This document shows, piece after piece, positions 3,382 to 60,212 of a DNA stretch of 64,000 nt. The stretch covers positions 6,426 to 70,425 of the forward strand of contig CAZWTD010000002.1 of assembly GCA_964637345.1 (NCBI GenBank). Reading direction: 5' to 3'. Origin of the DNA: an uncultured Gammaproteobacteria bacterium (GTDB taxonomy: Bacteria; Patescibacteriota; Patescibacteriia; HK-STAS-PATE-3). Position 1 is the first letter of the stretch; every line of letters begins with the position of its first letter. The translations under genes were made by a program, and so were the position numbers. The notes under the pieces were generated by a model, which was given only the letters and a program-made list of their open reading frames with translations, did no database searches and was not told where the DNA came from.

Positions 3382-3798
3382 TTAGGTACAGCGGACGCAA
3401 ACCCCGTAGAACTCGAGGGCGTGCCGTTGAGTGATAAATTGATAGTGTTTTCGGATGCGCCCCTCCTCTTCGCCGAGGTCGCGCTCAAGTTGGACGTCTT
3501 GAACCGTTTTACACCGAAGGCAGACGAGGTGGTGATGGTGGTTCCCGCGAAGCTCAAAGCGGCGGATTCCATCCCCAAAGTCGATAGCTTCAAGGAGGCC
3601 CTCCGCTTCGAGATGTTCAAGTTCTCGATAGACAGTGGTTTTATTTGGCTGCAGGCCAACGCGCGCGAGTCGTATTCCCACCTCAGACGCCGAGAGGGGA
3701 GCTGAGGCTCGATCCAGGACCTTTGAGAGGCCGATTCGAACACGGGTTATCCGGAGGCCCTTTTGTTGGATGCTGTGTAACAAGTTCGCGTTAGGCAT
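3382..3798 (-). CDS. zur: Fur-family metalloregulator, probably Zur
   Basis: Fur-family DNA-binding N-terminus with HHHHLVCLRC and C-terminal CVRC metal sites. It is in an operon with the ZIP transporter. The likely start is MPNANLL (ATG at 3796-3798), not the upstream TTG. Confidence 0.7.
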   Translation of the reverse strand: MPNANLLHSIQQKGLRITRVRIGLSKVLDRASAPLSASEVGIRLARVGLQPNKTTVYRELEHLEAEGLLEAIDFGDGIRRFELRGNHHHHLVCLRCKTVQDVQLERDLGEEEGRIRKHYQFITQRHALEFYGVCVRCT

Positions 3799-3879: not shown

Positions 3880-4983
3880 ATGAAGCAGGTTTACGCGGGA
3901 GTTTTTCGTGGTCGAAGACCGGCGTTACAAACGGAGATTGCCGACTGGAAGAGACAGGTAGAGCGTCGACTTGAACGGGTATTTCAAGAGTACCCAAGCC
4001 AACTTCCGATCGGGACTCCAGAGGTGAAGTCTGCTATTCGGCTCCTCCGTGAATTTACCCTTCGTGCAGCGAGTAAACGGGTTCGGGCCTACCTTGTCCG
4101 TCTTGGCTATGAATCGCGGTCCGCTCGCGTGCCGCAGGGCCTTATTGACGTAGCAGCCGCCGTAGAGCTCATTCAGACCTACCTGCTCATTCATGATGAT
4201 ATTATTGATCGGGACGAGGTTCGGCGCGGCGGACCGACCGTGCACGCCGCTCTTCGGGCGCAATTGACCGTGCCGGTGTTAGAGCGACGTCGTTTGAGCA
4301 ACAGCCTTGCCCTATTGATCGGGGATCTCGCCTTTAGTTGGGCGATGCGATTAGTAAGCGAGTCTCCATTTCCGGCGGAGCGACGATTGCGCGCGCTTCG
4401 CGTTCTTTTAACGACGCATGAGACCTGCGTTGGAGGGCAGTACCTCGACGTTCTACCCGTTAGCGAGATTTCGTTAACTCGCGAACGCGTCGAGGCAATC
4501 GCTCGGCGAAAAACAGCCTCCTATACCTTTGTTGGCCCCCTTTGCGCCGGGGCGTATTTAGCGGGAGCCTCAGAAACGACAATTCGCGCGCTGTCAGCCT
4601 ACGGGGAATCCGTTGGAATGGCCTATCAATGGATTGATGATTTAGATGACGTTCTCGCGCTGAAGCAGGGAGCGCGTTCCTCAAATGATCTCGACGAGGG
4701 TAAGGGGACTGCCGTTGTGATTGCAACGCGAAAACTTCTTCGCCCGTCAGAACGCCGTCGCTTTGACGCGCTTCTTCGGAAAGTCCCGAAAACACCTCTT
4801 GCCCTTCGGCGTTTGACGCGCTATGTTCATGAGGCGAAGGTTGAGAAAATGGTCCGCGCCGAAGCGGCGCACTTTGTCCAGCGGGGCATCCGCGCCCTAG
4901 CCTCACCGGCGGCGCTTCGTTCGGCTGCCCGCGGACGTTTACGAGAGGTATCGCACTTCATTCTTGGAGTAAAGACTGAATGA
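3880..4983 (+). CDS. polyprenyl diphosphate synthase (trans-isoprenyl diphosphate synthase, FPPS/GGPPS family)
   Basis: First Asp-rich motif LIHDDIIDRDEVRRG and second motif WIDDLDD are present. Start taken at MKQVYAGVF (ATG 3880) rather than 3811, which would overlap the palindrome. Confidence 0.8.
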   Translation: MKQVYAGVFRGRRPALQTEIADWKRQVERRLERVFQEYPSQLPIGTPEVKSAIRLLREFTLRAASKRVRAYLVRLGYESRSARVPQGLIDVAAAVELIQTYLLIHDDIIDRDEVRRGGPTVHAALRAQLTVPVLERRRLSNSLALLIGDLAFSWAMRLVSESPFPAERRLRALRVLLTTHETCVGGQYLDVLPVSEISLTRERVEAIARRKTASYTFVGPLCAGAYLAGASETTIRALSAYGESVGMAYQWIDDLDDVLALKQGARSSNDLDEGKGTAVVIATRKLLRPSERRRFDALLRKVPKTPLALRRLTRYVHEAKVEKMVRAEAAHFVQRGIRALASPAALRSAARGRLREVSHFILGVKTE

Positions 4984-14937: not shown

Positions 14938-17289
14938 TTACTCAAGAAGACGAGATCGGCGAAGGAGAGAGGCGCCGGCGACAAGGAAGCTTAGGCCAAG
15001 CAGCGCGAGGAGCGCATCGAGGGCCCCAGGTCCCGTTTCCGGAAGCGTGTCTTCCGCCCCAAGCACTTGCCCATTTGTTGCAGGTGTTTCATCGTCGTTC
15101 GTGTCTTCTGCGCCGAGAACTGAGCCCACAACAACGGCGACGCGCGCGGTCGAAGAAAGAGGATCAAGTCCATCCGCGCTCACGCGGGCAATATTGTCAT
15201 AAGTGCCTGCGCTCGCTGAGGGGGCAACCTTCGCCTCGTAGGTCGTTGTAATACTTTCTCCGGCCGGGATCGTACCAAGCATTTTCGCCATCGTTGTTGA
15301 ATCTGAGTCGGAGAAAGTGAAGGAGGTCGGTAGGGTATCGGTCAGAACAACATTCGTCGCAGCGTCAGATCCCGAGTTTTTTACTTTGACGGTGTAGGTG
15401 ACGACTGAACCCGGATGTGCTGATTCCCGATTCGCCGTTTTTTCAATTGTGAGCTTGGGTGAAGATGTAAGTGTCACGTCGGCGCTCGCCTCGAACGAAT
15501 CAACGCCCTTGGCCCGGACATTTGCGGTATTGATAACAATCGTATTGTCCTGAACAGTTGCGTCAACCTGTGTTGTCACTGAGAGTACGTACGAGTTTGG
15601 GGAAAGTGTTCCGAGGGACCACGTCACTGTCCGCGTCGCAGCGTCATAACTCGAACCGGAGCTTGCTTCAACAAAGGTGAGGTGTTCCGGGAGGGGATCG
15701 GAAACAATCACGTCTTCGGCATTTGCGTCGCTTACATTGAGCGTTAGGAAGTAGGTGATTGTTCCGCCAGCGGCTTGAATAGAGGCATTCGCTGATTTTT
15801 CAAGAGTGAGCTTTGGCGTAAGTGTTGGATCTCCTTCGTTTTCGCCACTCGCTTGGTAGTTTCCGAAGTTGAGGTTAGCAATTGTCTCTCCGAAGCCAAG
15901 CGAAATCGGGCCATGCATGGCGCTCGGCGTTCCCGGAAAGCTCTGGGTCCAGTCCGGCTGCATGACTTCTCGGACGAAGTAGGTTCCTGCGTAGGCCGGG
16001 GAGAAGGCATATGATCCGTCAACGGCTGTATGAGTTGTAGCGATTACCGTCGGGCTCCCGGTGAGGTTTCCGCCATTGCTGAAGGGGATGCCGAAACAGG
16101 CTAGGTCAAGGCGACTAATCACTCCGTCATGGTTCAAGTCAACGTTGGGGTTGAAGTTTTGGAACCCTTGCGTCCAGGCGACGAAATCTGACAGGTCAAT
16201 GATGTCGTTATCGTAGTAGTCGTATTCGTTGATATCTTGAGAGCAGGTCGTCAGAAGCTCGACAGTCCAGTGTTCGATGCCGTTTTCCTGGTTGTCCCAG
16301 TTGGTATTCTCATTTTCATCATTCCACTTGCCGCCGGAAATGGATCCCTGGCAGAGACCGAAGAAATGTTCAGTCGTCGCCGTTGAGCGGTTGTCATCCA
16401 GGTTTCGTTCAGGGTAGGGGACGTCCTGACTCGACGGAACTGGAGCAGGAAGAACTTGCTCAATGTCGGCGGTGTTCACGAGTCGTTCGCAGGTTAGAAC
16501 CGACGCGTCAATTGTTACCGTAAGCGAAATAGATCCAGTTTCGCCGATATCGAGCATTGGAATCGTCCAGGTCGCTACTCCGTTATTTACAGAGTCGGGG
16601 GTAGGCGTGGACGAGGCGATCGTTGCGCCGTGAGGAAGGACGTCATTCAGAACAACGTTGTAGGCCGGCCAGTTTCCTGTGTTTGCATAATTGATAACAT
16701 AGGTAATCCCCGTAAGTTTTTCCCCGTTCTCGGCAATTTTTTTATCAACTTGGAGATCAGGGTTTTTCGGGCAGAAACGTTGGGTTGTTGAAGTGGTATC
16801 TTCGACAATGCCGTCGTCCTCCGGAGTTGAAGCGGGTCCGACGCCACGAATATTGGCGGTATTCGTCACGGAAACGCATTCGGTCAGGGCGCCGAAGTCG
16901 AACGATGTGTCGAGGGAGACCGTCCCGTCGGTGTGCCCCGGGAGCGTGCCGATATTCCAGCTCACTGAATGAGAAACCGGATCGTAGGTTCCGCCATTCG
17001 AGGCGCTCATAAAACTAGACGTGGTGGGGAGCTTATCGGTGATGACGACATTGAAAAGCGTTATCCCTCCAGCGTTTTTGTACGATAAGACATACCCGGT
17101 GTCATTTGCTGGGTTGACGCTTTTTATAAGCTCCAGTGGGGAGGTGCCGGGGATAGCCGGTTCAGACGGAAGTACGGCCGCGGTCGTCAGGAGCGGCTGA
17201 GCGAGCAATCCAAAAAGAGTCGATACTGAAAGAATGAAGCGAGCGAGTCGCTGCCCCTTTCTCCAGTTTGATGCATATGATGGGTTCAT
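14938..17289 (-). CDS. large LPETG-anchored surface protein with DUF11 (conserved repeat) domains and dockerin-like Ca-binding motif
   Basis: Strong SD (GAGGAGG) before the ATG at 17289. Signal peptide, multiple LTYTxxVxNxGxxxAxNVVxTDxLP-type repeats, and NVDLNHDGVISRLDLA (dockerin/EF-hand-like). The C-terminus reads GQVLGAEDTLPETG followed by a hydrophobic stretch and RRSRLLE, a classic cell-wall sorting signal. Confidence 0.75.
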   Translation of the reverse strand: MNPSYASNWRKGQRLARFILSVSTLFGLLAQPLLTTAAVLPSEPAIPGTSPLELIKSVNPANDTGYVLSYKNAGGITLFNVVITDKLPTTSSFMSASNGGTYDPVSHSVSWNIGTLPGHTDGTVSLDTSFDFGALTECVSVTNTANIRGVGPASTPEDDGIVEDTTSTTQRFCPKNPDLQVDKKIAENGEKLTGITYVINYANTGNWPAYNVVLNDVLPHGATIASSTPTPDSVNNGVATWTIPMLDIGETGSISLTVTIDASVLTCERLVNTADIEQVLPAPVPSSQDVPYPERNLDDNRSTATTEHFFGLCQGSISGGKWNDENENTNWDNQENGIEHWTVELLTTCSQDINEYDYYDNDIIDLSDFVAWTQGFQNFNPNVDLNHDGVISRLDLACFGIPFSNGGNLTGSPTVIATTHTAVDGSYAFSPAYAGTYFVREVMQPDWTQSFPGTPSAMHGPISLGFGETIANLNFGNYQASGENEGDPTLTPKLTLEKSANASIQAAGGTITYFLTLNVSDANAEDVIVSDPLPEHLTFVEASSGSSYDAATRTVTWSLGTLSPNSYVLSVTTQVDATVQDNTIVINTANVRAKGVDSFEASADVTLTSSPKLTIEKTANRESAHPGSVVTYTVKVKNSGSDAATNVVLTDTLPTSFTFSDSDSTTMAKMLGTIPAGESITTTYEAKVAPSASAGTYDNIARVSADGLDPLSSTARVAVVVGSVLGAEDTNDDETPATNGQVLGAEDTLPETGPGALDALLALLGLSFLVAGASLLRRSRLLE

Positions 17290-17429: not shown

Positions 17430-19637
17430 TCAATCGAGTTCAGGAATCCGACGTCGGAAGAGCGTAACACCCAGTAACAGGCTCGTGAGTCCGAATGCGA
17501 GAATGCCATACTCGATTGGACTGGCTCCGGTTTCGGTCAGCGCTCCGAGCACTTGTCCGCGTTGGACAGTAATCGCTGCAGTGGCGGTCAATTGGGCAAC
17601 ATTATCTCCAACCACGCGTGCCGTGTTGATGAGTTGGCCGGCAGCGGCCGAGGCGCTCACGCGGACAGCGACGTGAATAATTCGTTCGTGGCCGGGGAGC
17701 AAATCCCCGAGCCTCCAGGTTGCCGTGCTTCCAGAGTAGTCAACAAAGGAGAGGCCGGCCGGAACTTCGTCGGTTAGCCGGAGGTTATACGCCGGGGCCA
17801 GTCCGTCGTTCCTGACGCTAAGGGTGTAGGTGACAACGCCCCCAATCGGAACAGTTGAGCGGTCGGCGACTTTTGTCAGAGTGAGCTTTGGACTTGGCGT
17901 ATTCGTTGGAATCACCAAACTTGAGACCTCAACCGTTGCTTTTGCATTCCGCGTTGGATGGTTTGAAGAGCTAACCGTAGCCACATTCTGATAACTTCCT
18001 GCTTTTGTGTCAGTCTTCACGACGACTGCATAGGTAAGGGTCCGGCTCGTTTCAGCTTTGAGCGTGCCAATCGGGAAGGAGCGATCAGTCGCTCCATTGT
18101 CGAGATAAACGAAGCCGGTCGGCAGAACATCCGAGACGACAACCTGAAGCGCGTCGCCGCTTCCCGTGTTTGAAACGACAATGGTGTAGAGGATTGTTTC
18201 ACCGGGCTTCACCGAGTCTTTGTCAGCAGATTTCACGATCGTGAGTTTCGGTGCGCCGCCTACCGTCAGCGATGCTGATGCACTCACCGGCTGTGCGTTG
18301 TCAGCCGAGAGCGTCGCGGTGTTATTGAGTTTTGCGCCAGGTTGCGTTCCAGCAGCGACTCGCGTCTGGACAGTCACGCTACCGCTGTCGCCTGGTTGGG
18401 CGCTTCCGAGCGTCCAGTTGATTTCGCGCGTTGGCGCGTTGTATGCGCCGCCGTTGCTCGCGCTGACAAAAGTGAGGCCCTCGGGCAGAGGATCGCGCAA
18501 GAGTAGTCCGTTGACTGCCTCGGTTCCGCTGACTGACCACGCGAGCGTGTAGGTGACAAGCTCGTTCGGAAGCGCAAGCGTCGGCGCTACCTCTTTAGTG
18601 AGGTGGAGCATCGCCAAGCTCGTGACAGTTGTGCTCGCGGAAGCCTGAACAGGTTTTAGCTCACTGGCCGAGAGGGTCGCGGTATTGGTAATCACTGTCC
18701 CGTTCGCGAGAGGGGAGATAATCTCTGCTGTCCACTGGACGCTGCCGTGGGCCCCGGGAGCTTGGTTACCCAAATTCCAGCGAAGTTCGTTCAGGTTGGG
18801 ATCGTACACGCCGCCTTGTGAGATTGTTGCAAAGATGAGATTGGCTGGAATTGGGTCGGTAAGAACCAGGTCGTATGCCGGACCGCTTCCGCTGACATTC
18901 CACGCAAGGGTATAGGTTAGCGTTGTTCCTGGAGCGGCAATTTCCGCGCTCACGGTTTTTTCTAGACCGATAGAAGGGATGCTTTCAATAGTTGTCGTTG
19001 CCGAATCAGACACTGGGTCAAGCCGGTCAGCGTCAATTGTTGCGGTATTTGTAATGACTGTCCCATTGCCGACCAGAGTATTGATCGTCCCGGTCCAGGT
19101 GAGCATCCCGTGTGCGCCGGATGCTTGGGTTCCGAGCGTCCAGGTAATGGTTGCAGTCCCAGAATCGTAGATCCCGCCGTTTTCGGCTTGCACGAAGCTC
19201 AGCTCTGTTGGAACGGGGTCTGTTACGACAACATTCGTGGCAGTTCCGTTTCCGCCAATGGACCAGTGAAGGGTGTACGTGAGCAAGTCGCCAGGATGTG
19301 CAAGGCTAAGGTCGACCTGTTTGTCGAGGTTGATTGTTGGGTGATTGGCTGGACTTGGGAGCGGAGCGGACGCAGTTGCTGGGGGTTCCGGCGACGTTTC
19401 AGGCTCTTCCGATTGGGTGGTTGATGGTTCCGTAGTTGAATTCGACCGTAGAGCGGGAGTGAGGTTATCCGCGAAGACGGCGGTCTCGGATTCTGGAATA
19501 GCCGCCTCTGTTGCTTCGAGGGTTTTTCCATACGCGAACCCAGGAAGGCAGGCTTGAAGAACAAGACTGACAAGTGCAATCACGGCCATTTTTCGACCGA
19601 AGCGCTGGCGGGAACGGAACACAGAGAAGTTCGGCAT
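17430..19637 (-). CDS. large DUF11-repeat surface protein with LTETG-type C-terminal anchor signal
   Basis: Start moved to MPNFSVFRS (ATG 19635-19637), which precedes a signal peptide. There are about 6 tandem DUF11-like repeats (LTYTLHWSIGGNGTATNVVVTDPVP...). The C-terminus reads RGQVLGALTETG followed by a hydrophobic stretch and FRRRIPELD. Confidence 0.7.
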   Translation of the reverse strand: MPNFSVFRSRQRFGRKMAVIALVSLVLQACLPGFAYGKTLEATEAAIPESETAVFADNLTPALRSNSTTEPSTTQSEEPETSPEPPATASAPLPSPANHPTINLDKQVDLSLAHPGDLLTYTLHWSIGGNGTATNVVVTDPVPTELSFVQAENGGIYDSGTATITWTLGTQASGAHGMLTWTGTINTLVGNGTVITNTATIDADRLDPVSDSATTTIESIPSIGLEKTVSAEIAAPGTTLTYTLAWNVSGSGPAYDLVLTDPIPANLIFATISQGGVYDPNLNELRWNLGNQAPGAHGSVQWTAEIISPLANGTVITNTATLSASELKPVQASASTTVTSLAMLHLTKEVAPTLALPNELVTYTLAWSVSGTEAVNGLLLRDPLPEGLTFVSASNGGAYNAPTREINWTLGSAQPGDSGSVTVQTRVAAGTQPGAKLNNTATLSADNAQPVSASASLTVGGAPKLTIVKSADKDSVKPGETILYTIVVSNTGSGDALQVVVSDVLPTGFVYLDNGATDRSFPIGTLKAETSRTLTYAVVVKTDTKAGSYQNVATVSSSNHPTRNAKATVEVSSLVIPTNTPSPKLTLTKVADRSTVPIGGVVTYTLSVRNDGLAPAYNLRLTDEVPAGLSFVDYSGSTATWRLGDLLPGHERIIHVAVRVSASAAAGQLINTARVVGDNVAQLTATAAITVQRGQVLGALTETGASPIEYGILAFGLTSLLLGVTLFRRRIPELD

Positions 19638-19952
19638 GGGTGCTCGAAGGTTAATCAAGATGATAATGAAAAAGCCAACGAAAGAGGACAAGAAAAAACG
19701 AAGAGACAGAAACTCCGTTTTGTTCGCTTTCGTTGGCTTTTCCCCGTCCTCCGCGGGTTTTTCAAGAAAGAACAAGTGCGAAAATGTGCGCGATCCCTCC
19801 GAAGGTGCGATGAATGTTTTGGGTGTTCTTTTCACAGGAAACCTTAGCAATCACTTTCGTTTGTGTCAACGTTAGCACAACATACTTTTCGTCCCTGTCA
19901 AGATAAAAAGCAAAGAGGGGAATCCGAGATTCTTCGTTGGAAAAATGAAGTT

Positions 19953-27077: not shown

Positions 27078-27489
27078 GAATTCCAAAGCGCAGCATTGGC
27101 TTATCCTGGACACACGCAACCCGCAATGTGCGGTTATCGGCTTGTTTCGAGTAAAAACTTTTTCCTTTCGGCGCGAAATTCGACGAAGACATCAAAAGCC
27201 CATTCCACTTCTCGCTGAAGTGGACCGTCTCCTTAAGGGTAGAGGCACGCTCGCTGGTCTTTGCTTTGTAAATGCCCCCGGTGGATTTACCAGTTTACGA
27301 ACCGGCCTTGTTCTTGCTCAAACACTAGCCTTCGCTCGAACTATTCCGCTCATCGAGCTCACCTCAAGCGATCCGAAAAGTATTTCAGCGGCAATTCGGC
27401 GAGCAAAGAAGGTAGCGCAGCTTCAGTACGGCCGTGCTCCATCGATCACTCTACCTCGATCGAATCCTACGCGGAAACCATCGGCGTAA
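27052..27489 (+). CDS. tsaB: TsaB/YeaZ-like (inactive Kae1 paralogue) protein, short
   Basis: HWLILDTRNPQCAVIGLF...GPGGFTSLRTGLVLAQTLAF matches the N-terminal lobe of TsaB. It is only about 145 aa, and the start is uncertain. Confidence 0.4.
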   Translation: MNQKQRILKNSKAQHWLILDTRNPQCAVIGLFRVKTFSFRREIRRRHQKPIPLLAEVDRLLKGRGTLAGLCFVNAPGGFTSLRTGLVLAQTLAFARTIPLIELTSSDPKSISAAIRRAKKVAQLQYGRAPSITLPRSNPTRKPSA

Positions 27490-28639
27490 ATCCCGGGGCG
27501 AGTAGCTGCGCTCCAAAGCCCTCAACGCGTCCGCGCAAGCCGCGGATGGCAGCCTGAATGCGATCGCTATTCCAAAGCGCACTTGAATGAGCTGCTCCGC
27601 GCGTTTCGAGCTGTTCGAAGCTTACGGTGAGCGAGTGAATGCTTAGGGATAGTCCAAGTGTATCCAGGAATATCCGTCGGACGAGGGATGCAAAGGTAGT
27701 GCGCGACCGCAGATCAGACAGCTCAATGCGGCGTTGGTGGGTTTGGCCTTTATTGTCCGTCATTCGGAGAGTAAGAAAACCCGCCGAGCGGCCTTGCGAC
27801 TGAAGTGCCCGTACGCCTTTCTCGGTAAGGTGCTGAACTGCTGAAATAAGCCAGTCCGTATTTTGAACTGGTTGCTCGAAGGTTAAGCTTCGGCTGAGAC
27901 TTTTTGTTAGGGCAACTGGAGTGATGTTGCTTTCGTCCCGGCCTTGAGCTTCTCGTTGCCAAATGAGACCGGCCTGACCAAACTGTTTTTCCAACCAGGC
28001 GTCCGAGGCCTGGGCGAGCTGACCGAGAGTTGAGATCCCGTGTGCGATAAGAAAGTCCCGTGCGCGTTCGCCCAGCGAATAGAGCCGTTGAAGCGGGAGC
28101 GGGTAGAGGTAGGCCCGTTCGTCTCCATTCGGGATCATTGTTATTCCATTGGGACGCTTATGACTTGAAGCAGCATAGGCAACCGCTTTCGTTTGTCCGA
28201 TGCCGATGCTTGCGGTTAGTCCTAGCTCCTTTTCAATCGATCGTTGAAGTGAAACAGCGAGATCGGCGGGCGCGCTTCTCGCAAAACGCTCGTCGCTAAG
28301 ATCAAGAAAGGCCTCGTCGAGAAGCCGAGGTTCAATTCGATCGGCGTAGCGGAGAAGGAGCGAAAAGAAGCTTCGAGAGCGGCGCTCGGCTTCTTGGAGG
28401 TCAAGCGGTTGAGCGACAACGAGAGGGCAAAGGCGAAGCGCCTCGGAAGCCTGAAGACCAGGGCGAAGTCCAAGACGGCGCGCGAGAGCGTTAAGGGCGA
28501 GAATCGGGCCATTTGCATTTCCATTAGTCACTACTAATGGTCGGCCTGACCATTCTGGACGTCGCTGGGTTTCAATTGAGGTCAAAAAACTATCGAGGCG
28601 GATATGGAGAATAAGGCGAGGGGAGTGCGGGGTATGCAT
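27467..28639 (-). CDS. Y-family (DinB/UmuC-like) translesion DNA polymerase
   Basis: Start taken at MHTPHSPRLILHIRLDSFLTSIE, the Y-family N-terminal motif. Palm, fingers and little-finger regions are recognisable. It lies immediately downstream of lexA on the same strand. Confidence 0.7.
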   Translation of the reverse strand: MHTPHSPRLILHIRLDSFLTSIETQRRPEWSGRPLVVTNGNANGPILALNALARRLGLRPGLQASEALRLCPLVVAQPLDLQEAERRSRSFFSLLLRYADRIEPRLLDEAFLDLSDERFARSAPADLAVSLQRSIEKELGLTASIGIGQTKAVAYAASSHKRPNGITMIPNGDERAYLYPLPLQRLYSLGERARDFLIAHGISTLGQLAQASDAWLEKQFGQAGLIWQREAQGRDESNITPVALTKSLSRSLTFEQPVQNTDWLISAVQHLTEKGVRALQSQGRSAGFLTLRMTDNKGQTHQRRIELSDLRSRTTFASLVRRIFLDTLGLSLSIHSLTVSFEQLETRGAAHSSALWNSDRIQAAIRGLRGRVEGFGAQLLAPGFTPMVSA

Positions 28640-28676
28640 AGGCCGAAGAAAAACCGAAGGATAAAAGGAAAAAAAT

Positions 28677-29303
28677 TTAGTATTTTCGAACGACGCCGAG
28701 GACTTTGCCTTGGATGACAACGGAGCGAACCTGAATCGGCTTATAGTTTTTATTAGCCGGTTGGAGCCGAACGTAGTTTTTATGCTTGTACATTTTTTTC
28801 AGTGTAGCAGTACCGTCTTCCAGGAGCGCGACAACCATATCGCCGTCTCGAGCGTAGTCGGTTTTTTCGATAACAACATAATCGCCGTCGGCAATCAGGC
28901 TCTCGATCATCGAGTCTCCGCGCACGCGAAGGACGTAGGCGTTTTTTCGTCCGACGATTTCTTCGGGAACTGAAAGCGTCGCATCCCGATTTTCAATCGC
29001 CTCAATCGGGTAGCCGGCTGCGATCGTTCCTACCAGCGGAAGGAGAATCCCGCCGTCGACAGCTCGGTCGTTCTCAAGGGAATCATCTGGGTCAAGAATC
29101 GTAATTCCACGCGCTTGTTGGTGGTCGCGTCGGATAAACTTACTCTTTTCGAGAAAGTCGAGATGCTCGTGAACCGTTGCGAGCGAGGAAACGCGGAAAA
29201 ATTTCGCGATTTCGGTTAGGGTCGGCGCGTAGCGATGCTCCTCGATGTATTCTTTGAGGTATTGGAGGAGCGCTTGTTTTTTCTTTGGAAGAATTGTCGC
29301 CAT
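28677..29303 (-). CDS. lexA: LexA repressor (S24 peptidase)
   Basis: N-terminal wHTH, an AG cleavage site (IAAGYP), catalytic Ser (GDSM) and Lys (LKKM). Confidence 0.9.
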   Translation of the reverse strand: MATILPKKKQALLQYLKEYIEEHRYAPTLTEIAKFFRVSSLATVHEHLDFLEKSKFIRRDHQQARGITILDPDDSLENDRAVDGGILLPLVGTIAAGYPIEAIENRDATLSVPEEIVGRKNAYVLRVRGDSMIESLIADGDYVVIEKTDYARDGDMVVALLEDGTATLKKMYKHKNYVRLQPANKNYKPIQVRSVVIQGKVLGVVRKY

Positions 29304-29510
29304 ACGAGAGTGAGGATTTTCGGTACCCTAGTTCGGGTTTAGGAGGGGAGGGTCTTTTGTTGTAAAACCAGTATAAACCGAAGGAAAACCGAATGTCAAG
29401 GGCCTCTTTGAGAATGACTAATTCCCAAGAAAAAATGACCAAAATTGAAAAGAAAGGATTGATCATTAGGATTTGGTCATTCGTCGTTTCCCCGCTATAC
29501 TTCCGGCGCT

Positions 29511-31601
29511 ATGGCTGAGAAATATATCCTCAAACGCACTGAAGGACCGTCGACCTTAAAGGTTGACTACGCGAAAGAGCTCAATGCAGAGCAGCTGACC
29601 GTTATTGAGAATGGCGACGGTCCGGTTCTCGTTCTCGCCGGCGCGGGCTCAGGAAAGACCCGGACGATCGTCTACCGCGTGGCCTACCTCCTTGAGCGGG
29701 GAATCCGGCCCGACAACATTCTCCTCGTTACGTTTACGAACAAAGCAGCAAAAGAGATGCTGTTTCGGATCCAGGAGCTCCTCGGCGCTTTTCCGAAAGG
29801 ACTTTGGGGCGGAACCTTTCATCATATCGCGAACCTTTTGCTTCGTCGCTTCGGTTCAAGCATTGGTTTTGAGCCGAATTTTACGATTCTCGATGAAGAG
29901 GATGCGAAATCCTTGCTTTCGGTATGCGTGAAGGATGAGGGGATTGATACAAAGGCGAAGCGTTTTCCCGCGCCGGCCGTTTTGAAGAGCATTATTAGTT
30001 TAAGCCTCAATACGCGCGAGTCGATTGAGGATGTTCTCGAGCGCCAGTATTCGAATTTTTTGCCTTTGGGCGAGTCGATTCGTACGGTTGCGAAGCGTTA
30101 CGCTGAGCGGAAAGCAAAGCATCATCTCATGGATTTTGATGACCTACTTGTTCAACTGGACCGCCTCCTTCGCGAACGGCCGGATATTCGCGAGCGGATC
30201 GCCGGGCAGTTCAAGTATGTGTTAGTCGATGAATACCAGGACACGAACCGCATCCAAGCTTCCCTCGTTGAACAGCTCGCGAGCGCTCATGGTAACCTGC
30301 TGGTGGTCGGGGATGACGCGCAGAGCATCTACGCCTTCCGCGGGGCAACGGTTCGGAATATTCTCGATTTTCCAAAAACCTTCCGCGGGGCAAAAACCTT
30401 TAAACTCGAGACGAACTACCGCTCGATTGAGCCGGTGCTCGAGGTAGCGAATGCCGTTATCCAGCATAATACCGAGCAGTTTGAGAAAACCTTAAAGCCG
30501 GTTCGCGCTGGGCGGGCGAAACCGATTGTCGTTCCGGCGGCTTCCACTGAACAAGAAGCGGAATTTATTAGCCAGCGCATATTGGAGTTTCGCGAAGACG
30601 GTATTCCGCTGTCGAACATTGCCGTGCTCTTCCGCGCGACCTACCAATCCCAATCGCTTGAATTCGAGCTGACCCGGCGGGATGTTCCCTACGAGTATCG
30701 TGGCGGCCTTCGTTTTTTCGAACGTGCCCATATTAAAGATGTCATTTCCTATCTTCGCTTGATCGATAACCCCCGGGATGAGGTGGCCTTTCTCCGCGTC
30801 GCGCAACTCTACGAGGGAATCGGGATTGAAACAGCCCTCAAACTCTGGCGCGAATGTTTCTCGAAAGTCACGCCGGGTGAAGGACTCGCGAGCGTTGACT
30901 GTTCAGCGGTTGGCGGCCAGCGGGCGCAGGCCGGGATCCAGGCGCTTCAGACTGCGTTGAAAGACCTTGGGAAGCCGGATGAGGCACAGCCCAGCGATCT
31001 TATCACGCGCGTTGCGAAAGGGAGTTACCGTGAGTATCTTCGCGTGACCTACCCGAATGCGGACGAGCGCTTTGAGGATTTACTCGAGTTATCCCGTTTT
31101 GGAGAACGCTATACGAAACTCTCGCTCTTTCTTTCCGAGGTTTCGCTCCAGGAGTCCTTCGGGGTCGGCGGAGAAGGGGAGGATCGGGAGAATGAACGGC
31201 TTGTCCTCTCAACGATTCATCAAGCGAAAGGCTTGGAGTGGGAAGTGGTTTTCCTGCTTGGGTGTAATGATGGGGCCTTTCCCAACCCGCGAGCGCTAAC
31301 CGAAGAAGGGGGAGTTGAGGAGGAGCGGCGCTTATTCTACGTTGCCGTGACCCGGGCGAAGACGCATTTGTTCCTGACCTATTCGATTGGCGTGAATATG
31401 CGGCTGACGACGATGCGAATGCAGCGGCCCTCGCCCTTCATCGGGGAAATTCCCGATGCGCTCGTTGAAGAGCTTCAGCTCTCCGAAGAGCCGCTTACTG
31501 ATCCGGATTTCGTTATCGAGCGGGATGAAAACGGGGAACCGATGAGCTTGCTCGATACCCTGCTTGCTTCGCACGAGCGGAGGAAGAAGCGTAGAGGGTA
31601 G
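29511..31601 (+). CDS. uvrD: UvrD/PcrA-family ATP-dependent DNA helicase
   Basis: Motifs I (AGAGSGKT), II (DEYQDTN), and later helicase motifs are present. It is divergent from lexA. Confidence 0.9.
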   Translation: MAEKYILKRTEGPSTLKVDYAKELNAEQLTVIENGDGPVLVLAGAGSGKTRTIVYRVAYLLERGIRPDNILLVTFTNKAAKEMLFRIQELLGAFPKGLWGGTFHHIANLLLRRFGSSIGFEPNFTILDEEDAKSLLSVCVKDEGIDTKAKRFPAPAVLKSIISLSLNTRESIEDVLERQYSNFLPLGESIRTVAKRYAERKAKHHLMDFDDLLVQLDRLLRERPDIRERIAGQFKYVLVDEYQDTNRIQASLVEQLASAHGNLLVVGDDAQSIYAFRGATVRNILDFPKTFRGAKTFKLETNYRSIEPVLEVANAVIQHNTEQFEKTLKPVRAGRAKPIVVPAASTEQEAEFISQRILEFREDGIPLSNIAVLFRATYQSQSLEFELTRRDVPYEYRGGLRFFERAHIKDVISYLRLIDNPRDEVAFLRVAQLYEGIGIETALKLWRECFSKVTPGEGLASVDCSAVGGQRAQAGIQALQTALKDLGKPDEAQPSDLITRVAKGSYREYLRVTYPNADERFEDLLELSRFGERYTKLSLFLSEVSLQESFGVGGEGEDRENERLVLSTIHQAKGLEWEVVFLLGCNDGAFPNPRALTEEGGVEEERRLFYVAVTRAKTHLFLTYSIGVNMRLTTMRMQRPSPFIGEIPDALVEELQLSEEPLTDPDFVIERDENGEPMSLLDTLLASHERRKKRRG

Positions 31602-31733
31602 GTTTTTCTGAACGAGATAGAGGGTCTGCGTTATCAGTATGAAAGATACGTCACGGGACTCGGGGTGACAAAAAGGAAGACGCCCCTGGTCGCGAGAAGC
31701 GAGCAGGGGCGTTCGTGGTGTTCGAGACTCAAG

Positions 31734-31934
31734 CTAGGTTGCCGGAGTTGGGTCGGGTCGGGTCGCGGCGAGGGCCCGGGAGCAGTACTTCGGGTGCGTC
31801 GTGATCCAAGACTTCAGGACCGGTTCACCACAGTCTTGACAGCGAGCACAACCGCACTCGGTTTCATGGGTCATCTTGGACCCAGGCTTGTGACAAGAAC
31901 AGACACAGAGCGTCGGATCCATTCCTTCGTGCAT
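31734..31934 (-). CDS. small Cys-rich protein (8 Cys in 66 aa), unknown function
   Basis: Strong SD (AAAGGAGG) sits 6 nt before the ATG. The cysteines form CxCxC...CGCxxCxxCG...YC patterns. Confidence 0.4.
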   Translation of the reverse strand: MHEGMDPTLCVCSCHKPGSKMTHETECGCARCQDCGEPVLKSWITTHPKYCSRALAATRPDPTPAT

Positions 31935-31969
31935 GGAAGCCTCCTTTCAGGGCATCCAGGGTTTTCGGG

Positions 31970-32770
31970 TTACCAGGGCTTGGCTGTGCCGTCGACGTCG
32001 ACCCAGGTCGTCTGGCCGAGGAAGAGGTCGTTCATCAGGGGAACGATGTCGACGTCGAGCTCCTTGTAAAAGGTCCTTCGTGTGTCAGGCCCGAAGTTAC
32101 CGTCGGACTCGAGGCCGAAGAAGGTCTGGAAGGTCTTGAGCCACGCTATGGCCGCGTCGTCCATCACGCCGGTAAGCGCGAGGGGCGGCAGGGCCTGCCG
32201 GATAAACTCCGGGAGGATGCGAGAAGCCGCCTGCATGATGAGCTGGAGCGTAACCGCAGGCGGACCACTGGCCCGCGTCCCATCTTCAGCAATCGAGTTG
32301 AAGTAGGGCGGGAAGAGCGGCGCGACCCGGAGAAGCGATCCGTTGGTGGCAAACGACGGCTCGGCCATTCCGATGCCGTTGAGGGTCACGAGCCACGGAG
32401 GATCGGTGATCTTCCCAGAAGGGTTGATGCGCCGGGCGAAGGAGTGGCGACCACGAGGAACTTTCGCGCGCTTCGTTTCCCCGCCGACCGCCTCCTTGTA
32501 CAAGAGTCCGTCCCAGCCGCCAGCCGGGAGAACCGCGTACAGGACGGCGTCCAAGCGCGCACCTTCGATGTCCGCTTCGAACTGCGTAGCCTCCGCGCCG
32601 ACCGCGGGGTCGCTGACGAGGACGGCCCAGTCCTTCCCGTGCTTGTCCCGGGGATTGGGAATAATGATCATTGGGTAGGCCCCGGGACCGAGCCTGGTCG
32701 ACTCGGTGTCACCGCGTTTCGATGTTACCCGATACAGGCGACATCCCTTTTCTTCGACTGTAAGGAGCAT
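31970..32770 (-). CDS. protein with C-terminal peptidoglycan-binding domain (PG_binding_1-like), unrecognised N-terminal domain
   Basis: Strong SD (GGAGGGAGG). The C-terminal LTGVMDDAAIAWLKTFQTFFGLESDGNFGPDTRRTFYKEL matches the PGBD helix-bundle signature. No signal peptide. The gene has slightly higher GC and G/C-ending codons than its neighbours. Confidence 0.5.
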   Translation of the reverse strand: MLLTVEEKGCRLYRVTSKRGDTESTRLGPGAYPMIIIPNPRDKHGKDWAVLVSDPAVGAEATQFEADIEGARLDAVLYAVLPAGGWDGLLYKEAVGGETKRAKVPRGRHSFARRINPSGKITDPPWLVTLNGIGMAEPSFATNGSLLRVAPLFPPYFNSIAEDGTRASGPPAVTLQLIMQAASRILPEFIRQALPPLALTGVMDDAAIAWLKTFQTFFGLESDGNFGPDTRRTFYKELDVDIVPLMNDLFLGQTTWVDVDGTAKPW

Positions 32771-32920
32771 GAGACCTCCCTCCTAGGGTAGTGGTTTCTG
32801 TTGGAACTCCGAGAGGAGCCTAGCTTTTAGGGGAAAAAAGTGCAAGACAGGTAGAGAGGAGGGAGTTATCCACCACCCAGGCCATTTCTTTGACGAATCG
32901 ACAAGAAAATGACGATTTTG

Positions 32921-32990
32921 AAGTGGTTGACGCGAATAGGAAAGTGGTATAAAATGGATGAAGAAGGGTGAAAAGTGGATAAAAGTGGGG
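32921..32990 (+). promoter_or_regulatory. mraZ promoter region with four phased GTGG direct repeats (candidate MraZ boxes) and a TTGAC/TATAAAAT promoter
   Basis: GTGG occurs at 32922, 32943, 32974 and 32984, a spacing of about 10 or 21 nt. TTGAC (32926) and TATAAAAT (32947) lie upstream of mraZ. Confidence 0.4.
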
Positions 32991-54272: not shown

Positions 54273-55391
54273 ATGACGCAACGGATTCATACCATCCCAA
54301 AACTCACCCTCGGCGCATTGAAGATGTTTATCCGGAATAAGCAGTCGCTCTTCTTTACGCTCTTCATGCCCTTTATCATCATGACGATTTTCGGCTTAAT
54401 CGGCTTTGATAAGCCGATGAAGATCGATATCGGGGTTGTGACGAACTCACCGACGGCCGAAACGACGGAATTCGTCGAACAGCTTAAGGCGATCGAGGCC
54501 TTTGTCGTTCATACGGGAGCGATTGACGATGAGCGTACCGCGTTGGAGAAAGGCGATCGAACAGTCGTTCTCCAGGTTCCCGATGCCTTGATGCCAAACC
54601 GATCGGGGCAGCCCGGCGCGCTAACTCCCCAGACGCTGACGGTTTTCACGAATGACCAGCAGCCGCAGCAAGTTCAGACTGCGCTAACGATTCTCAATCA
54701 GATTCTCGATAAGACGACCTTGGCCGCGGTTCAGGCTCCGACTTTGTTCACGATTGCTACGGAGAGTATTAGCACGCGGAATATCCGCTACATCGACTTC
54801 CTCTTGCCGGGGATTGTCGGCATGTCGATTATGCAGATGGCGGTGTTTTCGGTCGCTTTCGTGTTCGCCGACTATAAAGAGAAGGGGATTCTGAAGCGGC
54901 TTGTCGCAACCCCGATGAAGCCCTTTCAGTTCGTGACCGCGAATGTGATTACCCGGCTTCTCGTCGCGATTCTTCAGACTGCGGTTCTGATTGCGCTCGG
55001 CGTCCTCCTCTATAAGTCGACGGTCGTTGGATCCTACTGGCTCATCCTCCTCATTTCGATTCTTGGCGGAACGATGTTCTTGGGGCTCGGATTTACGATC
55101 TCCGGACTTGCGAAAACGGTTGAGGCGGTTCCGGCGATTGCCAACCTCATTGTCTTCCCGATGCTCTTCCTCGGCGGAACCTTTTTCCCGCTGACGAGCA
55201 TGCCGGATTGGCTTCAGCATGTCGTGACCTTCCTGCCGCTCCAGTATTTCACTGACGCCTTGCGTCAGGTTATGACGCAGGGAGCCGGGATCGGCGCGAT
55301 TGCGCACGATCTCTATTGGATGATCGGCTGGTCGGTTGTTATGGTTGTTCTCGCGAATTTCACCTTTAGTCTCGAGGAGAAGCGCGTCTAA
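54273..55391 (+). CDS. ABC-2 family transporter permease
   Basis: N-terminal TM, a large extracytoplasmic loop, and five C-terminal TM helices. Pairs with the upstream ATPase. Confidence 0.7.
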   Translation: MTQRIHTIPKLTLGALKMFIRNKQSLFFTLFMPFIIMTIFGLIGFDKPMKIDIGVVTNSPTAETTEFVEQLKAIEAFVVHTGAIDDERTALEKGDRTVVLQVPDALMPNRSGQPGALTPQTLTVFTNDQQPQQVQTALTILNQILDKTTLAAVQAPTLFTIATESISTRNIRYIDFLLPGIVGMSIMQMAVFSVAFVFADYKEKGILKRLVATPMKPFQFVTANVITRLLVAILQTAVLIALGVLLYKSTVVGSYWLILLISILGGTMFLGLGFTISGLAKTVEAVPAIANLIVFPMLFLGGTFFPLTSMPDWLQHVVTFLPLQYFTDALRQVMTQGAGIGAIAHDLYWMIGWSVVMVVLANFTFSLEEKRV

Positions 55392-57641: not shown

Positions 57642-58739
57642 ATGTCGTCGCGGTTTATTGCCAGCCTCGGTCTTTGCAGCCTCCTCTTCGTTGGAGGTCT
57701 GCTGGCTATTCATCTCGGCGTTGAGGTAATTGCGACGAAAGCCCCGGAGCCGCCGCCGCTTTTGCGCGACCCCCACCCCGAAGAAGCCGAACTCGAAGTT
57801 CCTGAGCCAAGCGCGTTAACCTTTGCGGCGGCCGGCGATATTATGCTCGCCCGGACGGTTGATACGAAGATGGAGCAGAAGGGGATGGCCTATCCTTTTG
57901 AGAAGATGCGGGACTATCTCGATTCAGTGGATTTCGCGTTCGCCAACCTCGAATGCCCGATCGTCGAAGGCCGCGACGTTGAAGCGAATGAGATGGTTTT
58001 CCGGGCTGATCCCGGGGTTGAGGCGGAATTGGCACGCGCAGGATTCAGCGTTGTTTCGCTCGCGAATAATCATAGTCCGAACTTTGGCGCGGCAGGGCTC
58101 CGGAGCACTTTTGCTCTTCTCGATCAGGCGCGGATCGCCTACGCCGGCGCCGGCGAGGACGCGAGCTCCGCACGCCAGCCCGTTCTTCTCGAACAAAAGG
58201 GAATACGACTGGCTTTTCTCGCCTACAACGATACGGACGTTGTTCCGGATTCCTATGCCGCCGGAGCTGATCGCCCCGGAACCGTGTTCATGGACATTGA
58301 ACCGATGCGTCAGGACGTCGCGTCCGCGAGCGAGCTCGCCGATCTCGTGATTGTTTCGATGCACTCGGGTACTGAATACGAATTTACGCCGAACCCGCGG
58401 CAGGAAGCTTTTGCCCGGGCCGCGATCGACGCCGGCGCCGAGCTCGTGATCGGCCACCATCCGCACGTTGTGCAAACGGTTGAGCGTTATCAGGGAAAGT
58501 ACATTCTCTACAGCCTCGGGAATTTTATCTTCGACCAGATGTGGTCGCGCGAAACCCGCGAGGGAATGGTCGCCTCCATTACGCTTACGGCCGAAGGAGT
58601 GCAAGACATTCACTTTCAGCCAGTGGTCATTGACGACTATGCGCAGCCAAGGCCGGCGACAACGGTCGAAGCCGCGCCGATTCTGGATCGCCTCGCGATT
58701 GAGCTTGAGAGTGATGGTTCGCTAACGGAAACCCAATGA
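57642..58739 (+). CDS. capA: CapA-family (PGA_cap) metallophosphatase-fold protein
   Basis: N-terminal TM and calcineurin-like motifs (GDIML, NLE, HSG, GHHPH), as in poly-gamma-glutamate capsule protein CapA. Confidence 0.75.
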   Translation: MSSRFIASLGLCSLLFVGGLLAIHLGVEVIATKAPEPPPLLRDPHPEEAELEVPEPSALTFAAAGDIMLARTVDTKMEQKGMAYPFEKMRDYLDSVDFAFANLECPIVEGRDVEANEMVFRADPGVEAELARAGFSVVSLANNHSPNFGAAGLRSTFALLDQARIAYAGAGEDASSARQPVLLEQKGIRLAFLAYNDTDVVPDSYAAGADRPGTVFMDIEPMRQDVASASELADLVIVSMHSGTEYEFTPNPRQEAFARAAIDAGAELVIGHHPHVVQTVERYQGKYILYSLGNFIFDQMWSRETREGMVASITLTAEGVQDIHFQPVVIDDYAQPRPATTVEAAPILDRLAIELESDGSLTETQ

Positions 58740-59356
58740 CCCTTCTTTGTGCAACGCTGAACCCAGGCAAGCTTGTCGAAATTCGAACCCTGCTCGCGGA
58801 TTGCGGCTGGACGATTGGATCAATGCTGGATCGCGGTTTGACGGAACAAGCGAGCGAAGACGCCTCGAGCTTTTCGGAAAATGCGCTTTTGAAAGCCCGC
58901 GCTTTGGCGGAGCAGACGAACGAGTGGGTCATCGCGGACGACAGCGGGATTTGCATCAACGGACTTCAGGATGAACCGGGGGTTCAGAGCGCGCGCTGGG
59001 CCGGGCCGGACGCGAGCGACGATGAACTCCTTGCGTTTGCGCTCAAGCAGGCAGAGTCTCTTTCGGATGAAAATCGCCAGGCTTCTTTTCATTGCGCGGC
59101 GGCGCTCGTTGCTCCCGACGGCCAGGAGTGGGTGTTTGAGGGGCGGGTCGACGGACGGATTCTCCGCGAGCCGCGGGGAGTTGCGAAGCCGAAGCTTGTC
59201 TACGATCGGATTTTCGTTCCGGACGGCGAGACGCGGACCTACGCCGAGATGGCTGAAGCGGATAAGGCGCTCATGAGCCATCGAGCCCAAGCGTTTCAGC
59301 GCGTTCGAACATTTTTACGCATACTCCGCGATGTTGAGGAAAACTCCGGCTCCTAA
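58736..59356 (+). CDS. rdgB: non-canonical purine NTP pyrophosphatase (RdgB/Ham1/ITPase)
   Basis: ATxNxGK, DDSGL, and SARWAG motifs are present. Confidence 0.8.
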   Translation: MTLLCATLNPGKLVEIRTLLADCGWTIGSMLDRGLTEQASEDASSFSENALLKARALAEQTNEWVIADDSGICINGLQDEPGVQSARWAGPDASDDELLAFALKQAESLSDENRQASFHCAAALVAPDGQEWVFEGRVDGRILREPRGVAKPKLVYDRIFVPDGETRTYAEMAEADKALMSHRAQAFQRVRTFLRILRDVEENSGS

Positions 59357-60212
59357 ATCACGGCTTCGTCTCTTCGCGTTTTTCTTCCTGGTTCTCGCGC
59401 TCGTTTTGCTTGCCTTGGCGTGGTTGTTTTCCCGGTCAGGAGACGAGCCTCAGAATGAGAACGAAGCGCCCGTCACCAATGAAGCTCCAGCGACGAACGC
59501 ATCCCCCTCGGCGAATCGAGCCGTGAACACAAATTCCAGCACGGCGACGAATCAGACAAACGCATCTTCGAATACGAATACGGAAACGCCGAGTCAGGGC
59601 GAGGTCCCGGAGGAAATTTCACGGGTCTCAACGAATGATCGCGTTGTGGTATTCACCTTTGATGCTGGGAGCGGGAATACCTCGGTCAGCGATATTCTCG
59701 ACGCGCTTGAGGCGCAGCAGGTGACCGGAACTTTTTTCCTCACCGGGCGCTGGGCCGAACAGTTCCCCGAGGATGTGCGGGCGATCGCGGACGCGGGGCA
59801 TGAAATCTACAATCACACGTATTCCCATCCGCATCTCCCGGATATGCTGACCGCGGATATCCAGTCAGAGCTTGAACGAACGAACACCTTAATAAAGAAT
59901 TTAACCGGCAAATCAACGAAGCCCTACTTCCGTCCGCCCTACGGAGACCGGAACGACCATGTGCTCGAGGCAGCCTGGGCAGCCGGGTATCAATCGATTT
60001 TTTGGACGGTTGATGCGCTCGATTGGAAGGAAAGCGAGGGCGTAACCGCCGCGCAAGTCCGGGAACGGATATTGACCTCGCTTGAACCGGGAGCGATCTA
60101 CCTCATGCACGTCGGGGATACGATTACCGGAAGCATCCTCGACGGACTGATCGAAGAGGTGCGCGCCTCAGGCTACGAAATTCGTCCCCTCGGCCAGGCC
60201 CTTCGCGAATAG
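59331..60212 (+). CDS. polysaccharide deacetylase (NodB homology domain, CE4), membrane-anchored
   Basis: TM helix, N/T/S-rich linker, then TFDAG (TM1-like), HxxxH (HTYSHPH) and later NodB motifs. Confidence 0.8.
   Translation: MLRKTPAPKSRLRLFAFFFLVLALVLLALAWLFSRSGDEPQNENEAPVTNEAPATNASPSANRAVNTNSSTATNQTNASSNTNTETPSQGEVPEEISRVSTNDRVVVFTFDAGSGNTSVSDILDALEAQQVTGTFFLTGRWAEQFPEDVRAIADAGHEIYNHTYSHPHLPDMLTADIQSELERTNTLIKNLTGKSTKPYFRPPYGDRNDHVLEAAWAAGYQSIFWTVDALDWKESEGVTAAQVRERILTSLEPGAIYLMHVGDTITGSILDGLIEEVRASGYEIRPLGQALRE

Follow-up and report, generated by a model that had tools for sequence, protein, structure and literature searches.

Three kinds of described system stand closest to the protein considered here. 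PG_binding_1 modules are found in the SleB N-terminal domain (6tci), the Burkholderia phage AP3 endolysin (5nm7), the Streptomyces Zn DD-peptidase (1lbu), phiKZ gp144 (3bkh), and the YcbB L,D-transpeptidase (6ntw), and these wall enzymes carry the module attached to a catalytic domain and are either secreted or released through holins. Tandem SH3b domains bind the wall in endolysins, as in the cell-wall-binding domain of LysPBC5 (6ilu; compare Psm, PlyPSA, and CBD500). Finally, Ca. Paceibacteria highly express peptidoglycan-binding-domain proteins that are proposed to be host-attachment factors (Kuroda et al. 2024, PMC10936435). We analyzed a 64,000-nucleotide stretch of contig CAZWTD010000002.1 from an uncultured bacterium of the Patescibacteriota (hereafter the window), in which an initial annotation had singled out two minus-strand open reading frames (ORFs) between uvrD and the dcw cluster. 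ORF calls bore out this layout, and we refer to the two co-directional ORFs as geneA and geneB. Our favored reading, to which we give a probability of about 0.5, is that geneA encodes a lineage-restricted, self-contained, non-catalytic, multivalent cell-wall-binding protein of a candidate phyla radiation (CPR)/Patescibacteria-type bacterium, probably strongly expressed and fast-evolving.

Domain architecture of geneA

The N-terminal domain (N-domain) of geneA spans residues 1–147 and consists of a beta-repeat of ~70 amino acids that is duplicated internally, in place of the unrecognized domain of ~190 residues that had been annotated. The two repeats align with each other at an hhalign probability of 96% (E 4e-9), the duplication is also seen by BLASTP within the relative P0002 (E 3e-9), and aromatic residues are conserved at matching repeat positions (W48/W126). 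Both repeats are all-beta in the AlphaFold2 model (predicted local distance difference test score, pLDDT, 93.5; predicted template modeling score, pTM, 0.80), which was built from a 22-sequence alignment after a four-sequence input had given a pLDDT of 37. None of the six N-domains searched gave a Pfam match at E ≤ 10, SH3b families (SH3_3, SH3_4, SH3_5, SH3_8, and others) included, and PDB sequences gave no match either. The modeled fold most resembles the tandem SH3b domain of LysPBC5, a similarity that is marginal. Like the endolysin domains, the modeled geneA N-domain consists of two duplicated, beta-barrel-like repeats of ~70 residues joined by a short linker, and geneA is leaderless as endolysins are; unlike them, it has no sequence similarity to any SH3/SH3b Pfam family or PDB chain.

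The remainder of the protein is a PG_binding_1-type module, as the initial annotation had proposed. geneA itself scores 21.3 bits against PF01471 (E 3e-4), under the Pfam gathering score of 23 bits, and its relatives P0005 (30.9 bits), P0010 (37.0 bits), and P0011 (24.5 bits) lie over that cut-off. The family profile matches hundreds of PG_binding_1 repeat proteins, and among PDB sequences the module matches the peptidoglycan-binding domain of YcbB (E 5e-4). It shows the three-helix-bundle fold together with the D-G-x-(F/V)-G-x-x-T turn, present in geneA as DGNFGPDT. Two conserved extensions set the family's module apart from those of the PG_binding_1 wall enzymes: PLFPPYxN before the bundle (PLFPPYFN in geneA) and a WVDxDG..W beta-hairpin after helix 3 (TTWVDVDGTAKPW in geneA). 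A further difference is that the geneA-type module also exists on its own. We observed, in other genomes, stand-alone leaderless proteins of 110–175 residues that consist of the extended module alone (LFPPYLN ... DGNFGPxTR ... WVDxDG..WP; L087 7001–7393, L089 1834–2169, and P0010–P0012, P0015, P0026, P0031, P0037, P0039, P0040, P0044, P0048, P0072, and P0090), and those genes for which DNA was available have GGAGG Shine-Dalgarno sequences. A 198-codon gene upstream of P0039 (L087) was considered as a split-off N-domain and rejected, being a hydrophobic membrane protein, and apparent N-domain stretches in P0067 and P0080 proved to be a PG_binding_1 repeat plus a chance match (hhalign probability 7–10%).

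The geneA reading frame is closed by a TAG five codons before its ATG, so the N-terminus cannot begin farther upstream. Because the N-terminus is hydrophilic (mean Kyte-Doolittle −0.70 for residues 1–25; maximal 19-residue window 1.19) and cannot be extended, geneA has no signal peptide or transmembrane segment by hydropathy, in agreement with the initial annotation. Searches of Pfam, NCBIfam, PHROGs, PADLOC, and PDB sequences, as well as a fold search, found no catalytic domain. None of the positions that are invariant across the six full-length relatives is a His, Cys, or Glu; conservation falls on Gly, Pro, Trp, Tyr, Phe, Asn, Ser, and Asp, a pattern that suits a scaffold for binding and does not suit a hydrolase. 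The earlier suggestion of an endolysin-type hydrolase or toxin thus holds for the leaderless form and the endolysin-like kind of binding module and is not supported for the enzyme: unlike the PG_binding_1 wall enzymes, geneA is neither joined to a catalytic domain nor secreted or holin-released, and unlike phage endolysins it lacks an enzymatically active domain and a phage context (no PHROGs, INPHARED, or IMG/VR matches). We conclude that geneA, whose N-terminal repeat domain is undescribed, represents a new domain architecture within the known class of modular wall-binding proteins.

Expression signals and codon composition

Wherever DNA upstream of a full-length member is available (five loci: window, L001, L004, L005, and L088), a conserved element lies 75–79 nt before the ATG. 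It reads TTG(C/T)(A/G)N, a nonconserved 17-nt spacer, and TAGGCTC(Y)(N)GTC (L001 ~3524–3552, L004 ~1831–1859, L005 ~361–389, L088 ~60–88; for the window see Table 1). The element is kept at L088 despite a protein only 35% identical, and it is kept across unrelated genomic contexts; the 64-kb window has just two copies of TAGGCTC. The element retains both sigma-70 promoter cores, TTG and TAnnnT, and is unlike a LexA box, and a dedicated promoter or operator is its probable identity. A near-consensus sigma-70 promoter lies upstream of mraZ, divergent from geneA, showing that the host uses canonical promoters, unlike the TAGGCT −10-like hexamer of geneA. The geneA leader shows no conserved RNA structure (5′ untranslated region alignment of the five loci, −3.5 kcal/mol). 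A leader that sequesters the Shine-Dalgarno sequence, formed from the inverted repeat 32771–32784/32857–32870, was also considered and rejected, there being no excess folding stability (z = 0.05) and no conserved structure.

Both ORFs have strong Shine-Dalgarno sequences (AGGAGGGAGG and AAAGGAGG) at canonical spacing, as first annotated. Well-placed GGAGG is uncommon in the window, and GGAGG stands upstream of the start codon at all homologous loci. Among 129 ATG-initiated ORFs of 50–100 codons in the window, only geneB has a perfect AGGAGG at −17 to −5.

The G+C content at synonymous third codon positions (GC3s) of geneA is 0.776, the highest in the window (z = 3.4; mean 0.564, sd 0.063, and maximum 0.727 for the 55 other genes). 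Its synonymous choices nevertheless fit pooled host usage slightly better than average (log-likelihood z = +0.66): third positions in the window prefer C>G>T>A, and geneA exaggerates the same order. The coding log-odds of 0.179 is also typical of host genes (mean 0.158). Hence the codon pattern is not a foreign dialect. Of the GC-shifted pair first described, geneA stands (z = 3.4) and geneB does not (GC3 0.63, z = 1.0, inside the sampling error for 62 codons; log-likelihood of its synonymous choices under host usage, z = +0.82); likewise, the codon usage of geneA differs from that of its neighbors in GC3 and not in synonymous choice.

The GC3 excess characterizes the family. Its members are GC3-rich in all five other host backgrounds with DNA; the other full-length members with DNA have GC3 values of 0.73–0.80 each, with neighbor GC3 ranging from 0.45 to 0.75 over all loci. 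Among the stand-alone modules, P0155 reaches 0.86 against 0.52–0.55 for the adjacent parA and parB, and P0039 (0.70) lies inside its neighbors' range of 0.51–0.71. Selection for high expression would be the simplest reading of a GC3 excess combined with a strong Shine-Dalgarno sequence and host-like codons. The other GC3-rich genes of the window encode ABC-2 membrane proteins (the permeases, 0.70–0.73) and proteins of unknown function.

Family distribution, descent, and the status of geneB

Full-length relatives of geneA form six sequence groups among ~15 billion proteins. In 5.8 billion clusters, a word-seeded search turned up no more than three further full-length proteins, P0002 (62% identity) and P0003 and P0004 (~50%); profile searching with HMMER, carried out exhaustively on 1.84 billion representatives, contributed just two more, P0005 and P0006 (~35%). 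No member was found in 185,579 GTDB species representatives, a set that holds no close relative of the host (best UvrD matches 47–54% identical, the CPR ones being Uhrbacteria, Parcubacteria, and Buchananbacteria), nor in IMG/VR, INPHARED phages, or PLSDB plasmids; PHROGs, PADLOC, and NCBIfam gave no match. From the UvrD matches, the host probably belongs to a CPR/Patescibacteria lineage that lacks a representative. The family is undescribed, as had been supposed.

In all seven loci or contigs examined the neighbors are ordinary chromosomal genes, some of them unannotated ORFs, with no phage or mobility genes. L001–L003 occupy the same slot between uvrD and mraZ, with an extra 332-codon gene and a glyoxalase gene and without geneB. 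In L004–L006 the order is galT, a divergent gene for a Cys4 protein of 71–73 residues, the geneA homologue, PBP1A, dnaN, and dnaA. At L088 a convergent GIY-YIG gene lies beside the homologue, and on the P0005 contigs a divergent 101-codon gene and a convergent 313-codon gene do. Wall-synthesis genes (dcw cluster or PBP1A) adjoin the family member in the window, L001, and L004.

Compared with its L002 orthologue, geneA has 62.6% amino acid identity, a synonymous divergence (dS) of 0.81, and a ratio of nonsynonymous to synonymous divergence (dN/dS) of 0.38. The corresponding values are 95.1%, 0.88, and 0.04 for mraZ; 77.8%, 0.92, and 0.16 for rsmH; and 84.6%, 2.93, and 0.04 for uvrD, whose synonymous sites are near saturation. 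Because its dS is near those of mraZ and rsmH, geneA is orthologous and was inherited together with its flanks. It is under purifying selection, and the protein evolves several-fold faster than the products of the flanking genes. The claim of a horizontally acquired island is therefore not sustained: the orthologue is syntenic and of similar dS to its neighbors; mobility genes, flanking repeats, and phage, plasmid, or IMG/VR matches are absent; the GC3 excess is family-wide and the codons are host-like; and, of the two ORFs, only geneB is lineage-specific.

Comparison of the two related genomes shows indel hot spots on either side of geneA (L002 1744–2742 (−) and L001 2832–3407 (−) versus window 31602–31969 and 32822–32864). 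In the relative, the uvrD-side flank of the homologue encodes a 332-residue protein without family match and the mraZ-side flank contains a Glyoxalase_4 gene; in the window, geneB occupies the first of these flanks and the second is empty. The Cys4 mini-protein divergent from the homologues of one subclade (L004 1529–1750 (−), L005 68–283 (−), L006 ~4001–4207 (−)) has one His (CxxxxxCP..C ... C.....H), is 66% identical between lineages, and matches nothing in Pfam, PHROGs, PADLOC, or NCBIfam.

The second ORF has 66 codons and eight Cys, as annotated. A terminator hairpin (folding z = −3.4; inverted repeat 93% complementary) begins 21 nt past its stop codon, and because this G+C-rich hairpin and UCUUCCUUUUUGU directly follow geneB, geneA and geneB form a single terminated transcription unit. 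We found no homologue of geneB in any search. It is absent from the six other loci or contigs with a full-length relative (tblastn against the homologous loci gave nothing below E = 3), and none of the three start sites tried for it gives a protein present in the collection of 15 billion. A relationship to the Cys4 mini-protein of L004, L005, and L006 was rejected (no BLASTP alignment at E ≤ 100), as was descent from the 332-codon gene of L002, to which it has no similarity. The proposal that the two genes form a paired system is accordingly not supported: they co-occur at none of the other loci or contigs examined, which is one half of the initial annotation's own grounds for refutation, the other half failing in that the GC3 of geneA does differ from the other genes of the window. 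We conclude that geneB is a lineage-specific orphan, co-transcribed downstream, and not a conserved partner of geneA.

We lean toward geneB being a real, translated gene. The perfect AGGAGG 5 nt from the ATG would arise together with such an ORF with a chance of ~2e-4 in composition-matched random sequence and is unique among the 129 ORFs of similar size, and the terminator is well placed relative to the stop codon. If translated, geneB is probably a small Zn-binding protein, judging by its Cys/His spacing, which weakly matches TRAF-type zinc fingers of TRAFD1/FLN29 (2d9k, E 0.007; PF21366, E 0.049) and the Midline-1 B-box (E 0.049); these scores are far under the family thresholds and the domains are eukaryotic, and we do not claim homology. 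Conversely, the 290 nt between geneA and the terminator may be a 3′ untranslated region in which the ORF is open by chance, a possibility we take seriously while thinking it the less probable. Such a reading would account for a codon log-odds of −0.116 (0.14th percentile of in-frame gene windows, with no frame positive), for a second-position G+C content of 0.60 that is typical of out-of-frame ORFs in the window, for the lack of homologues, and for the absence of the ORF at the orthologous locus. However, a composition rich in Cys, Pro, and Thr by itself lowers codon scores, and the marginal zinc-finger matches (E 0.007–0.05) also speak for translation. Searches for a noncoding RNA in this region found no Rfam family; the sole Rfam match in the window is a tRNA.

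Beyond the two ORFs, an SOS-type group (27467–31601: Y-family polymerase, LexA, and UvrD) directly adjoins them. The window also encodes two adjacent large DUF11-repeat proteins, presumably at the cell surface, as well as a CapA-like PGA_cap protein and a polysaccharide deacetylase, close to which lie ABC-2 transporter permease genes (Table 1).

Table 1. Coordinates in the window of geneA, geneB, their signals, and neighboring or otherwise noted genes
Feature	Position	Strand	Description
geneA	31970–32770 (stop included)	−	ORF, 266 aa, leaderless
geneA beta-repeat 1	32567–32770	−	Residues 1–68
geneA beta-repeat 2	32330–32539	−	Residues 78–147; holds the most conserved N-domain motif, GRHSFxRRxNPSGK..DPxWLV
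geneA C-terminal module	31973–32329	−	Residues 148–266; PG_binding_1 three-helix core ~169–237 (nt 32060–32266)
geneA Shine-Dalgarno	32775–32784	−	AGGAGGGAGG; ends 4 nt before ATG
geneA upstream element	32817–32845	−	Promoter-like: TTGCAC (32845–32840), 17-nt spacer, TAGGCT (32822–32817), then conserved C-Y-N-G-T-C
geneB	31734–31934	−	ORF, 66 aa, 8 Cys and 4 His (CxCxCH ... CxCxxCxxC ... C)
geneB Shine-Dalgarno	31940–31947	−	AAAGGAGG; 5 nt before ATG
Intrinsic terminator	31667–31712	−	14-nt-arm G+C-rich hairpin (31680–31712), then UCUUCCUUUUUGU
Y-family polymerase	27467–28720	−	IMS/IMS_C
LexA	28677–29303	−	LexA_DNA_bind and Peptidase_S24
uvrD	29511–31601	+	
mraZ promoter	32927–32955	+	TTGACG-17-TAAAAT
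mraZ, rsmH, ftsL-like, ftsI	33038 onward	+	In this order, then a Mur ligase gene
DUF11-repeat gene	14938–17289	−	One of two (~783 and 806 aa); well-placed GGAGG Shine-Dalgarno, one of few in the window
DUF11-repeat gene	17430–19850	−	Second of the two
PGA_cap and polysaccharide deacetylase genes	57642–60212		
ABC-2 permeases	54273–55391, 62290–63579		

Competing explanations and implications

In the model that we favor, geneA would combine three binding-type modules, two tandem SH3b-like beta-repeats and a PG_binding_1 three-helix module with family-specific extensions, and would thereby bind peptidoglycan or an associated wall polymer multivalently. Its expression unit would join three features, the promoter-like element shared by the family, a strong Shine-Dalgarno sequence, and a high share in the ORF of the C- and G-ending codons that the host prefers, and because of these the protein is expected to be made in large amounts. 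It may work as a wall-associated adaptor or adhesin-like protein that does not cut the wall. Since it lacks a Sec or Tat signal, it would have to reach the wall by a nonclassical route or on cell lysis. The fast evolution of the protein fits an exposed, interaction-type role. The patescibacterial peptidoglycan-binding-domain proteins of PMC10936435, which are likewise of unknown function, offer a loose precedent, with expression measured there and predicted here.

Several points weigh against this model. Peptidoglycan binding is predicted from domain content, and geneA is a protein of wall-binding type that lacks an export signal. The proteins of PMC10936435 are, unlike geneA, far larger (e.g., a 2079-nt gene) and carry Sec signal peptides. 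The case for high expression is made from the Shine-Dalgarno sequence, codon bias, and promoter conservation, and the window contains no ribosomal or other benchmark genes with which to calibrate codon bias. Finally, the structural model of the N-domain depends on six sequences only.

Having no leader, geneA may instead stay in the cytoplasm and act as a sensor or regulator whose ligands are soluble precursors of the wall or muropeptides that are being recycled (UDP-MurNAc-peptide, lipid II head group), or as a protein–protein module that modulates the adjacent wall-synthesis or division machinery. No family member, stand-alone modules included, has a signal peptide or transmembrane segment, and two genomes have a member beside mraZ-rsmH-ftsL-ftsI-murE and another beside PBP1A. 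We think this quite unlikely, however, because the family genes run divergent or convergent to the dcw genes under their own promoter, other members adjoin unrelated genes (GIY-YIG, parAB, and recG), and a dN/dS of 0.38 is unusually fast for a core cytoplasmic regulator. To our knowledge, moreover, all well-characterized PG_binding_1 and SH3b modules work outside the membrane. A different question is where the gene came from. A mobile, self-contained cassette of promoter, Shine-Dalgarno sequence, and ORF may have spread laterally among CPR genomes from higher-GC donors, with the GC3 excess as a retained foreign signature; such an origin would be compatible with a wall-binding function. It would explain why GC3 is high regardless of host GC3, why the locus differs by lineage (uvrD–mraZ, galT–PBP1A, or GIY-YIG), why the upstream element travels with the gene, and why the flanks are indel-prone (the glyoxalase and 332-codon genes in L001/L002, geneB in the window) and the distribution is so patchy, down to its absence from the GTDB representatives. 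Yet members are 35–63% identical, so that any transfers are old and the composition should have drifted hostward; the dS between the window and L002 (0.81 against 0.88–0.92 for mraZ and rsmH) indicates vertical descent at that depth; and neither the host-like synonymous choices nor the lack of an integrase, transposase, or flanking repeats speaks for a cassette. We regard this origin as unlikely.

The explanation offered in the initial annotation, a module gained by horizontal transfer that pairs an endolysin-type hydrolase or toxin (geneA) with a Cys-rich partner serving as immunity protein, regulator, or ribosomally synthesized peptide (geneB), would find support in the leaderless form and endolysin-type binding modules of geneA, its GC3 richness, the single transcription unit with strong Shine-Dalgarno sequences and a shared terminator, and the different small Cys4 protein encoded divergently upstream of the relatives in L004, L005, and L006. 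That Cys4 protein is unrelated to geneB, which itself is without homologue and missing at every other locus; geneA lacks a catalytic domain and conserved catalytic residues; and the syntenic orthologue, the host-like codon choice, and the lack of phage, plasmid, or defense matches all run counter to acquisition as a module. We consider this model largely refuted and very improbable. Extending the wall-binding reading further, we might suppose that geneA and the stand-alone modules form an undescribed class of leaderless, abundant, rapidly evolving wall-binders of CPR episymbionts that are exported by a non-Sec route and latch onto the host's or their own wall, under a dedicated promoter/operator (TTGnnn-N17-TAGGCTCnnGTC), with geneB and the Cys4 mini-protein as lineage-specific Zn-binding accessory factors; taken as a whole, this extension is improbable.

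The practical outcome is mainly corrective, in that a two-gene endolysin or toxin–immunity island is unsupported. The local jump in GC3 here marks a property of a gene family, probably linked to expression, and not a recently acquired island, which calls for caution in reading such jumps. geneA is of modest interest, and would be of more only if the reading as a leaderless, highly expressed host-attachment protein were true. The attachment of CPR/Patescibacteria to cell walls and their interaction with them are poorly understood, and geneA offers a small, concrete candidate for a protein that may take part in them.

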